Shown: positions 5,186-57,513 of the stretch, one piece after another | Numbering within the stretch: position 1 is the first letter of the stretch | How the letters are laid out: the number at the start of each line of letters is the position of its first letter | Assembly: GCA_019058245.1 (NCBI GenBank) | Contig: JAHPZJ010000013.1 | Location: forward strand, 137,166-201,165 | Length of the DNA: 64,000 nucleotides | Source: Promethearchaeota archaeon | GTDB taxonomy: Archaea > Asgardarchaeota > Lokiarchaeia > Sigyniarchaeales > SOKP01 | Direction of reading: 5' to 3' | The notes under the pieces: model-generated | The model's input: the letters and a program-made list of their open reading frames with translations, nothing else | Told to the model about the DNA's origin: nothing | The model's database searches: none | Translations under genes and position numbers: made by a program

Positions 5186-5671
5186 TCAAACATAATCAAT
5201 TTTTATAGCTTCTCGAGGGCAATAGGTTTCGCAAACTCGACATTCTCTTTCTCTTCCTTCTGCTTCTATTCTTCTACAATGCTTTATCGCCAATAGTTCA
5301 CACTTTCCCCCTTTAATTTGAAATAATTGGTGTTTTTCAGGTGGATAATCTGGTGCTTTCCCACTTAAAGTTGGAGGACAATATCTCGCATTAACAGGAC
5401 AAACCGTTACGCAAATACCACACCCATCACACAATTCTTCATCAACATCAATTCGAAGCTCTTTTTCCTTTCCCTCTTCAGCGCCTAATAATTCCTTTAA
5501 TTTATCATATTCTTTTTTATATTTTGGTTCTAAGAGGGGAGTACAATCATCAACTTTTACTTTGCCTTGCAATAAATCCAGCGCAAAGGCCATGCAAGTA
5601 GGCTTTCCACACTTTTTACAATTAGTTTTGGGTAAAAATTTATATAATTCCATAAAGTTACTTACAGGAAT
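5186..5671 (-). CDS. Fe-S protein: LPKTNCxxCGxxTC domain plus 2x[4Fe-4S] ferredoxin (FwdG-like), probable ATT start
   Basis: LPKTNCKKCGKPTCMAFA, CDGCGICVTVCP, CRVCETYCP. First ATG is at 5653; an in-frame ATT at 5671 lies 7 nt behind AAGGTG. Confidence 0.8.
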   Translation of the reverse strand: MPVSNFMELYKFLPKTNCKKCGKPTCMAFALDLLQGKVKVDDCTPLLEPKYKKEYDKLKELLGAEEGKEKELRIDVDEELCDGCGICVTVCPVNARYCPPTLSGKAPDYPPEKHQLFQIKGGKCELLAIKHCRRIEAEGRERECRVCETYCPREAIKIDYV

Positions 5672-5915
5672 TTAAAAACACCTTGACAATTTAATTTTAT
5701 AACGTTTTCCAGTAAAGAATAATATTTTGAAATTTATTAATTTCTTTAGTTTATTTATTATAAAATCCTCATAATAGGAACTTAATTTATTAACTAAAAA
5801 TCCAGAAACTTTCATAAAATATTAAAGAAAAAGTTAAAGCGACTTCTTTTCTTCCTTAAATTAATTAATAATTCTATAAATAGTATAATCAGAAAAATTT
5901 ATGAGATAAGAAATT

Positions 5916-6767
5916 ATGACAGAAAAAGAGATACCAGATATAGATTTAAAAGAGATGATGATAGACGAGAGAGAAAAAAACATTAAAAGTAATATGGATA
6001 AGATTAAACATAAAATCGTAGTAATTTCAGGAAAGGGGGGAGTAGGTAAAACCACAGTTGCGATTAATCTTGCGATGAGCTTAGCAAGTGTAGGTTTGAG
6101 AGTTGGAATACTTGATGTAGATATTACAGGACCAAATGTAATAAAAATGCTTGGAATCAGTTCAGAATTGAAACCTAGAGTTGATGCTGAAGCTAAACGA
6201 TTTTATCCTATTGATGGACCTTTAAACCTTAAGGTTATGAGTATGGCATTTTTAACTCTTAATCCAGATGAACCTGTAATTTGGCGAGGACCAATGAAAA
6301 TGAGTGCTGTAAGACAGTTTCTAGGAGATGCTGAGTGGGGAGAACTTGATTACTTAATTTGTGATTTACCTCCTGGTACATCTGATGAAACGTTAGATAT
6401 ATTACAGCTTATTCCTGATGAAAATGTTATAGTTGTTACAACACCTCAGGAAGTTGCTTTAATGGATGCAAGAAAAACAATAAAAATGGCTCTTGTAATG
6501 CAGAGAAAAATACTAGGGATTATTGAGAATATGTCTGGTTTTGATTGTCCACATTGTGGAAAATATATTGATTTATATCCTCCAGGTGGAGCAGAAAAAG
6601 CGAGTGTAGATTTTAATATTTCTCTTTTAGGTAAAATACCTTTTGAAATAGAAGTTAGTCAACAAGGAGATCAAGGATTGCCATTTATTATTAAATATCC
6701 TGAAAGTAAATCTGCTAAAGCATTCAAAGATGCTGTTAAAAAAATTAGAAATTTATTAGAAAATTAA
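5916..6767 (+). CDS. apbC: Mrp/ApbC/NBP35 Fe-S cluster carrier ATPase
   Basis: SGKGGVGKT, DVDITGP, VIWRGP, DLPPGTSD, VTTPQ, ENMSGFDCPHC. Confidence 0.95.
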   Translation: MTEKEIPDIDLKEMMIDEREKNIKSNMDKIKHKIVVISGKGGVGKTTVAINLAMSLASVGLRVGILDVDITGPNVIKMLGISSELKPRVDAEAKRFYPIDGPLNLKVMSMAFLTLNPDEPVIWRGPMKMSAVRQFLGDAEWGELDYLICDLPPGTSDETLDILQLIPDENVIVVTTPQEVALMDARKTIKMALVMQRKILGIIENMSGFDCPHCGKYIDLYPPGGAEKASVDFNISLLGKIPFEIEVSQQGDQGLPFIIKYPESKSAKAFKDAVKKIRNLLEN

Positions 6768-56112: not shown

Positions 56113-56118
56113 GAAATA

Positions 56119-57513
56119 TCACTTCCCCAATTCTCGTGGATGTTTTCCACCACGCCAATGTTCTTCAATTTCTTCTAGGGTTCTTCCCTTAGTTTCTGGA
56201 ACGTAAACATACGTAAAGATTAATGCCATTATTCCTACAACGGCATAAAACCAAAATGTACCTGAACGTCCTAATAATTGAATTAAAGTTAAAAAAGTTA
56301 GCGCAATGATCAAGTTAGATCCCCAGTTAGCTTCTGTTACGATGCTCATTGCACGTCCTCTAACTTTCAGAGGGTATATCTCAGATATTAATAACCAAAA
56401 TACTGGTCCCAATCCAATAGCGAAAAAGGCGACATATGCTATTAAACTAATTGCTGCTAACGTTCCTAATTGATTTAATAAACTTGGTAAAAAGAATACA
56501 ATCCCTAGCATTATAAGCATCCCACTCATGCCAATTAAACCGAGTAATAATAATTTACGCCGTCCGACGCGATCCAACAAAAATATTGCGACAATAGTAA
56601 AGCCCACATTCACAATTCCAACTATGATTGTAGCAAAGATAGCCGCTGAAGCTGATTGAAATCCTGCAAATTCAAAAATAGTTGGGGCATAATAAATCAC
56701 GGTGTTAATTCCAGTTACTTGTTGGAAAATCGCCAATGATATACCCACAATCATTGCAGGTCTTATTAAAGGACTAAGCAGAGCTTTTCTTTCTCCTTTT
56801 TGCTTATCGAGGCTAGTAATAATTTCATCGAGTTCATTATTGATATTATTTGTCCTTCGAATTTCAATCAATGTAGAACGCGCTTTATTTACCTTTCCTT
56901 TATTAACTAGCCATCGTGGGCTGTTTGGCATGAAGATCATTGCTATTAATAATATAAGAGCAGGAATAGCTGCTAAACCAAGCATATAACGCCACCCACT
57001 TATAGGTGTAAAGGCATAATCCACCAAGTAAGATATAACAATTCCTATAGTAATAAATAATTGATTTAAAGACACTAATGATCCTCTAATTTTTGGTGGA
57101 GACATTTCAGAGATATATAGTGGAGCAATAAAGGATGCCATCCCTATAGCAATTCCTACAATTACTCTTCCTATGATCAGGAATATTATATCGATTGTTA
57201 ATGAGGTCCCTATTGCACCACCAGCAAATATAATTGCGGCTATAATAATCATTTTTCTTCGTCCATAACGATCAGCTAACGATCCCCCTATAAATGCTCC
57301 GATTATTGCTCCAATTAATACAGCACTAATAACTAATTCCTGTAAAAATGGTAAAAGAGTATATTCTTGCTTAATAAATAGAATAGCCCCAGATATAACA
57401 CCAGTATCATAACCAAATAACATTCCGCTAATTCCTGATACCATCGCAATAATATAAATAAAAGTATTATTCGTAGATTTGTGAAATAACATCTTAGTGA
57501 TTATTTTTCTCAT
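56119..57513 (-). CDS. Sugar porter family MFS transporter
   Basis: FGYDTGVISGA, DRYGRR, PNSPRWL, QQVTGIN, DRVGRR, PETKG. Confidence 0.95.
   Translation of the reverse strand: MRKIITKMLFHKSTNNTFIYIIAMVSGISGMLFGYDTGVISGAILFIKQEYTLLPFLQELVISAVLIGAIIGAFIGGSLADRYGRRKMIIIAAIIFAGGAIGTSLTIDIIFLIIGRVIVGIAIGMASFIAPLYISEMSPPKIRGSLVSLNQLFITIGIVISYLVDYAFTPISGWRYMLGLAAIPALILLIAMIFMPNSPRWLVNKGKVNKARSTLIEIRRTNNINNELDEIITSLDKQKGERKALLSPLIRPAMIVGISLAIFQQVTGINTVIYYAPTIFEFAGFQSASAAIFATIIVGIVNVGFTIVAIFLLDRVGRRKLLLLGLIGMSGMLIMLGIVFFLPSLLNQLGTLAAISLIAYVAFFAIGLGPVFWLLISEIYPLKVRGRAMSIVTEANWGSNLIIALTFLTLIQLLGRSGTFWFYAVVGIMALIFTYVYVPETKGRTLEEIEEHWRGGKHPRELGK

Follow-up and report, generated by a model that had tools for sequence, protein, structure and literature searches.

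Probable near-cognate start codons at Shine–Dalgarno spacing in genes of a Lokiarchaeial genus

Initiation at codons one base from AUG is described for a few bacterial genes: AUU or AUA starts directed by a Shine–Dalgarno (SD) sequence open infC and pcnB in Escherichia coli, and infC, cvfC1, ccpN and citZ in Staphylococcus aureus (PMC4705826, PMC13009471). AUU-initiated infC, which encodes the initiation factor IF3, is autoregulated (PMC4705826), and in S. aureus, with its four such genes, an AUU or AUA start behind an extended SD yields about 10% of the output of AUG (PMC13009471). In eukaryotes, near-cognate initiation occurs at CUG, ACG and GUG, and eIF1 autoregulates through the poor context of its own start (cited in PMC6237735 and PMC4705826). 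Here we describe genes of this kind in a 64-kb stretch of DNA of about 27% G+C, hereafter the window, on contig C13 of an uncultured Lokiarchaeia (Asgard) archaeon, and in its relatives. Dozens of intact genes in the host genome (G000) and its genus, three of them in the window, very probably start at ATT, ATA, ATC, ACG or CTG at a fixed distance from an SD.

These genes resemble the AUU/AUA genes of E. coli and S. aureus in having a codon one base from AUG that is conserved among relatives and optimally spaced from a strong or extended SD upstream; and, as with bacterial infC, the gene of a fidelity factor, here aIF1, has such a start itself. Bacterial AUU/AUA starts are thought to hold expression down. 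Whereas bacteria have two to four such genes per genome, G000 has roughly 70–90 among 2,613 long open reading frames (ORFs) under a strict SD filter, with ACG and CUG among the codons, and, unlike the bacterial infC system, it belongs to an archaeon with the eukaryote-type factors aIF1 and aIF2 instead of IF3. Shared with eukaryotes are the factor family (eIF1/aIF1), a weak start on the factor's own mRNA, and ACG and CUG starts; eukaryotes, however, rely on scanning and Kozak context with no SD, whereas here the starts are SD-linked, AUH codons (AUA, AUU and AUC) dominate, and feedback through aIF1 is a proposal. Mitochondria (NCBI tables 2 and 5) also use AUA, AUU and AUC as initiators, but with a modified C34 in tRNA-Met, with AUA read as Met during elongation in many lineages, and with no SD dependence. 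There was no sign of a code change in the G000 lineage, as table 11 proteins gave strong matches (Pfam; aIF1 alignment). Table 11 lists ATT, ATC, ATA and CTG as alternative initiators and thus formally permits them, but ATG, GTG and TTG are the starts that gene callers work with in practice; to our knowledge, ACG is not among the table-11 start codons. A full-text literature search found no report of non-AUG starts in Asgard archaea.

Near-cognate starts in the window

The host genome is a metagenome-assembled genome (MAG) of 3.09 Mb in 31 contigs, 76% complete; near-identical HdrC proteins come from MAGs titled Promethearchaeota or Promethearchaeia, that is, Lokiarchaeia, an Asgard class. An earlier note on this DNA had proposed near-cognate starts for five genes: hdrC, an Fe-S protein gene, a glucoamylase gene, an MFS transporter gene and a small ORF. 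The coordinates of all five were re-checked, and the observation holds for the first three. Pfam backs the gene identities given earlier: hdrC encodes a 4Fe-4S dicluster protein, the glucoamylase carries Glucodextran_N and GH15, the MFS gene matches MFS_1, and the Fe-S protein has PF04060 and 4Fe-4S domains. The features of the three genes are as follows, with distances in nucleotides (nt).

50280..50837, minus strand: hdrC coding sequence, predicted start ACG 50837-50835 (orthologue codon alignment; Fer4 dicluster upstream of the first in-frame ATG)
50844..50848, minus strand: putative SD core GGTGA, 6 nt before the hdrC ACG (complementary to the 16S 3′ end ...GGAUCACCUCC of a genus genome)
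5186..5671, minus strand: coding sequence of the Fe-S protein (PF04060 and 4Fe-4S), predicted start ATT 5671-5669 (codon conservation in 30 genus genomes)
5679..5682, minus strand: putative SD core GGTG, 7 nt before the Fe-S gene ATT (same distance in 30/30 genus loci)
53692..56112, minus strand: GH15 glucoamylase coding sequence, predicted start ATT 56112-56110 (ATT aligns to ATG or TTG in orthologues; Glucodextran_N)
56119..56126, minus strand: SD-like GGAAGTGA, 6 nt before ATT 56112; it overlaps the TGA that ends the sugar-transporter gene upstream (sequence and orthologue alignment)

The hdrC frame is open from 50837 to 50280 on the minus strand, and a TAA (50840-38) immediately precedes ACG 50837; the first in-frame ATG, GTG or TTG is codon 98, which lies past the Fer4 dicluster domain (residues 33–91) and both cluster motifs. 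Other MAGs provided about 65 full-length orthologues, in which the codon before a conserved S-D/E-V is ACG in 26, ATG in 34, ATA in 3 and GTG in 2, and the upstream GGTG is retained in 24 of the 24 ACG-bearing loci listed. The ACG persists despite an altered spacer (L063, L066) and despite there being no stop to close the upstream frame (L010, L024). In a DNA tree of 54 distinct hdrC sequences, the genus forms a clade of 30 made up of 19 ACG and 11 ATG loci, within which well-supported branches require at least three changes between ACG and ATG; a separate ACG occurs in L066. We rejected a homopolymer indel that would restore a nearby out-of-frame ATG (ATG ATA AAC...): that ATG is part of the SD in ATG-starting relatives, and the ACG stays where it is absent (L063, L066). 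The earlier placement of the hdrC start at ACG 50837 is supported by about 60 loci of independent MAGs in which this codon is either ACG or ATG, and on this comparison hdrC is neither an assembly error nor a dying gene. In G013 and G020, orthologue or paralogue matches to hdrC contain single in-frame TAG stops.

The Fe-S gene, put forward earlier as a weaker case, proved the cleanest of the five. Its ATT 5671 lies six codons before an in-frame ATG (5653) and is immediately preceded by TAA; in most of the 30 genus genomes a stop codon likewise immediately precedes the start position, which is occupied by ATT in 26, ATA in 2, ATC in 1 and ATG in 1 (29/30 ATT, ATA or ATC). The six codons that precede the internal ATG preserve the peptide (I/M)PVSNF while differing synonymously (CCT/CCA/CCC, GTA/GTT/GTC, AGT/AGC, AAC/AAT, TTT/TTC).

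The glucoamylase frame is open from 56118 to 53692 on the minus strand, with AGTGA (56123-19) 6 nt upstream of ATT 56112. Its first canonical start is codon 111, inside Glucodextran_N, a domain whose first residue is number 12 when the ATT is taken as codon 1. The start suggested for this gene stands, as the ATT aligns to ATG in three orthologues (G049, G056, G051) and to TTG in a fourth (G005); a homopolymer indel, with an out-of-frame ATG nearby (ATG ATG GTG...), was suspected first and then rejected, since here too that ATG is part of the SD in ATG-starting relatives.

A genome-wide census of orphan SD sequences

First ATGs in G000 are preceded by a G-rich SD signal; its 4- and 5-mers align into GGAGGTGA, the complement of the 3′ end of 16S rRNA (...GGAUCACCUCC) as found in a genus genome. 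A GGTGA-like motif occurs at functional spacing (6–7 nt) upstream of all three confirmed window genes. A census on the bare GGTGA motif was uninformative, most such sites being internal Gly-Asp/Glu codons, and was replaced by a census of orphan SDs in the 2,613 open frames that were 100 codons or longer and did not overlap. An orphan SD was defined as an exact 5-mer SD match near the 5′ end of a frame, with no ATG, GTG or TTG in any frame 3–12 nt downstream and no in-frame canonical codon upstream; a decoy motif of the same composition served as control.

We found 157 orphan SDs. The in-frame triplet 5–7 nt behind them was ATA in 45 cases, ATT in 30, ATC in 9, ACG in 6 and CTG in 4 (94/137), compared with 64/398 for the same five codons at other spacings and 15/88 behind the decoy, whereas AAG, AGG and TTA showed no peak at SD spacing. 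The pattern is above chance. All but ten of the matches (84/94) differ from AUG at the third base only (ATA, ATT, ATC). In 67 census genes, 10 codons or more intervene before the next canonical codon; the median length of the stretch skipped in this way is 37 codons, against 12 for an average random open run. The 67 extensions have coding composition: the frequency of G at codon position 1 is 0.26, close to the 0.29 of coding sequence and far from the 0.09 of upstream non-coding sequence. The same census gave little signal in 400 kb of a genome from another Lokiarchaeial family (G026; 5/13 versus decoy 3/12) or in 400 kb of one from another Asgard class (G139; 5/18 versus decoy 3/25); from these small samples, the high near-cognate rate seems specific to the family of G000.

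One census match, on the window's contig but outside the window, is a small GTPase of the RagA/Gtr1 type, a eukaryote-signature type.

G000:C13:27123-28028 (locus L291), minus strand: RagA/Gtr1-family small GTPase, predicted ACG start in G000 (census match; Pfam from residue 2)

Its P-loop lies six residues after the start. Among 29 genus genomes the start codon is ATG in 13, TTG in 7, GTG in 2, ACG in 3, ATA in 3 and ATT in 1; it has changed at least 12 times on the tree, and every variant is AUG or one base off, a pattern that one would not expect at an internal codon. In every ATG species the longest SD match measures 3 nt, as against 5–6 nt in every ACG, ATA and ATT species, and hdrC shows a similar trend in SD length (mean 4.6 versus 6.7 nt).

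These starts bear on annotation. Gene callers limited to ATG, GTG and TTG truncate or mis-start at least 67 G000 genes, with a median loss of 37 residues. Indeed, the systematic truncation that the earlier note had predicted is borne out in a public protein collection, where for this genome HdrC has 88 amino acids and no Fe-S clusters, the glucoamylase 698 and the Fe-S protein 155, all truncated; full-length public cluster-mates have 184–188 amino acids for HdrC and 806 for the glucoamylase, of which the G000 form lacks 108 residues. N-terminal loss in Asgard proteomes affects domain counts, signal-peptide calls and structure predictions, and it matters because inferences on the origin of eukaryotes use these proteomes.

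Initiation machinery and competing explanations

The earlier note had suggested altered aIF1/aIF2 fidelity as a possible cause and had named the initiator tRNA and aIF1 among the components to inspect; read in relatives, the tRNA is canonical and aIF1 is itself ATT-started. The initiator tRNA of two genus genomes has A1:U72, three G-C pairs in the anticodon stem and the anticodon CAU, and its gene contains a 31-nt intron next to the anticodon loop (L196, about 1440-1535, minus strand; L199, about 1486-1593, plus strand); ARAGORN missed it. In G006, two candidates for the initiator tRNA proved to be tRNAs for Thr and Asn. Across the entire G000 assembly, with introns allowed, ARAGORN reported only about 20 tRNA genes.

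In all 26 genus aIF1 loci read, the 5′ region runs TAA / GAG AGT ATT AAA GA. .. TGT CC., with ATT as the predicted start and no in-frame ATG, GTG or TTG before the CPxC zinc knuckle; the product aligns to Methanocaldococcus jannaschii aIF1 (PDB 4MO0) from residue 3 of the latter. The start position holds ATT or ATC in other genera of the family, ATA in two and TTG in two other Lokiarchaeial families, and mostly ATG in other Asgard families, with ATA in two of these and CTG in one.

These observations are best explained, with a probability of about 0.82 by our estimate, by SD-directed near-cognate initiation with the ordinary Met-tRNAi, tolerated lineage-wide. The 30S subunit would be placed by pairing of the 16S 3′ end (...GGAUCACCUCC) with a strong GGTGA-like SD, and the ordinary initiator Met-tRNA (CAU) would then initiate on a codon one base from AUG lying 5–7 nt past it, usually AUA, AUU or AUC and less often ACG or CUG. 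Such weak starts would be tolerated and conserved in a few percent of the genes of this Lokiarchaeial genus, would be freely exchanged with ATG, GTG and TTG between species, and would tend toward longer SDs. Relaxed, SD-driven start selection as a lineage property, as the earlier note read it, is supported by the conservation of the starts across dozens of independent MAGs and by the census.

In this mechanism methionine would be inserted at the near-cognate starts, with an efficiency presumably below that of AUG. An AUU-started aIF1, a factor that rejects mismatched starts, could further provide an infC-like feedback that holds stringency permissive. In Sulfolobus solfataricus, aIF1 favours discrimination against non-canonical starts (PMC6237735); that such feedback may operate here is suggested by this work and by the literature on IF3 (PMC4705826).

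Several points weigh against lineage-wide near-cognate initiation. The genes for aIF1, the initiator tRNA and 16S rRNA were not found in the G000 assembly and were all read from genus relatives. Some 23 of the 94 census matches are expected by chance, with an exact 5-mer SD required; net of chance, the census leaves about 70 genes, or about 2.7% of long ORFs, under this strict SD filter; for the window the figure is 3–4 of 56. The glucoamylase ATT itself was found in G000 only, and the MFS gene of G000 has no satisfactory near-cognate codon at SD spacing, the triplet there being TTA. Finally, by independent contrasts the relation of SD strength to start codon is not significant for hdrC or the GTPase (p = 0.125 or worse; few independent pairs).

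A wider proposal, which we advance tentatively and regard as somewhat doubtful, is that Lokiarchaeia lower start stringency systematically through their AUU-initiated aIF1, and that a weak start combined with a strong SD acts as a fast-evolving means of tuning expression in a few percent of genes, including a eukaryote-like GTPase; this might be a prokaryotic forerunner of eIF1 autoregulation and of ACG and CUG initiation. The near-cognate rate is more than ten times the two to four genes known in E. coli or S. aureus, and the setting is the archaeal class closest to the cultured relatives of eukaryotes, with an AUU-initiated eIF1 homologue, making it testable when and how start-codon stringency and its feedback control evolved.

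The same starts might instead be read through a lineage-specific change in the initiator tRNA, either a modified C34 or a second initiator species, with no lowering of factor stringency. We think this unlikely overall, but a modified C34 is a live alternative for the AUH majority: f5C at tRNA position 34 permits AUA/AUN reading in mitochondria, relaxed wobble at that position predicts that matches be off only at the third base, as 84 of the 94 are, and the 31-nt intron adjoins the anticodon loop. Against it, the gene sequence is canonical (CAU, three G-C pairs), though DNA cannot show modifications, and ACG and CUG starts lie beyond wobble.

Still less probable is that initiation is canonical and that ACG is turned to AUG by C-to-U editing of the mRNA, as in plant organelles. 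Such start-codon editing is established in chloroplasts and plant mitochondria, and in hdrC and the GTPase the ACG aligns exactly with ATG in relatives; yet ACG makes up just 6 of the 94 census matches, the other 88 (ATA, ATT, ATC, CTG) are not convertible by C-to-U change, ACG starts show the SD strength and spacing of ATH starts, and we know of no mRNA editing in archaea.

Least credible is an origin in assembly errors, recent pseudogenes or downstream canonical starts behind a chance-open frame: the MAG is only 76% complete, the small ORF at 27482 indeed has a 1-nt indel and the glucoamylase ATT is unique to G000, but dozens of MAGs produced by different studies show the same non-canonical codons, the extensions hold conserved Pfam domain sequence with coding composition (median 37 versus random 12 codons), and the MFS gene has a ratio of non-synonymous to synonymous substitution rates (dN/dS) of 0.27–0.35. 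The earlier note had itself raised assembly error and pseudogenes; the former is excluded because the near-cognate starts are conserved across assemblies, and the latter because there is synonymous variation with intact ORFs. On sequence grounds, four of the five cases cannot be put down to error or decay, the small ORF being the exception.

The MFS gene, the small ORF and neighbouring genes

Two of the five genes first proposed do not fit the near-cognate pattern cleanly.

22691..23992, plus strand: MFS transporter open frame, predicted start within 22697-22714, either ATT 22697 or TTA 22712 behind GGGGA 22701-22705
27357..27520, minus strand: conserved small ORF opening at ATG 27520, frameshifted by 1 nt compared with G049; ACG 27482 is internal (alignment to G049)

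The first canonical codon of the MFS frame is TTG 23027, 112 codons in; no ATG, GTG or TTG was seen in any frame within 22650-22790, and the MFS_1 domain begins 17 residues past 22712. Judging from this frame, translation must start near 22697-22712, at either ATT 22697 or TTA 22712. The start anomaly noted earlier is real, and its location holds; TTA 22712 as the start is unsupported, as TTA is two bases from AUG and has no genome-wide enrichment at SD spacing. Position 22712 is ATA in the closest relative (G049) and TTA in G045 as in G000, and in the paralogues L101 and L103 an in-frame stop precedes an ATT that lies at the SD-spaced position. A GTG inside the SD is a possible start for many paralogues, which have an in-frame GTG there; it is excluded for L101 and L103 by the intervening stop and for G000 by the absence of GTG. 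The gene is maintained, because dN/dS is 0.27–0.35 in its three closest copies. The MFS search also returned many paralogues with single in-frame stops.

The small ORF was said to start at ACG 27482, a claim that alignment to its G049 homologue refutes. That homologue reads through 55 codons from an ATG shared with G000 (27520), whereas G000 has a 1-nt gap about 12 codons in, beside an A-run, which places the conserved C-terminal part in the ACG frame; both halves are conserved at the protein level between the two genomes. The AGGT before ACG 27482 was rejected as an SD, being coding sequence. The frameshift could be an assembly indel or a mutation, or conceivably a site of programmed frameshifting.

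Elsewhere in the window, a 689-codon open frame (5′ region 36693-36720, plus strand) has as its sole early canonical codon TTG 36708, fused to an SD-like GAGAGGT without any spacer, and TTA occupies the properly spaced triplet, as in the MFS gene. Directly upstream of hdrC and the genes downstream of it lie a TusA gene (52576-52797), two DsrE/DsrF-like genes, one DsrH-like gene and one DsrE_2-family gene (region 43182-52824, minus strand; Pfam). Such sulfur-relay sets accompany Hdr-like complexes in sulfur oxidisers, and their presence beside an Asgard Hdr is unexpected.

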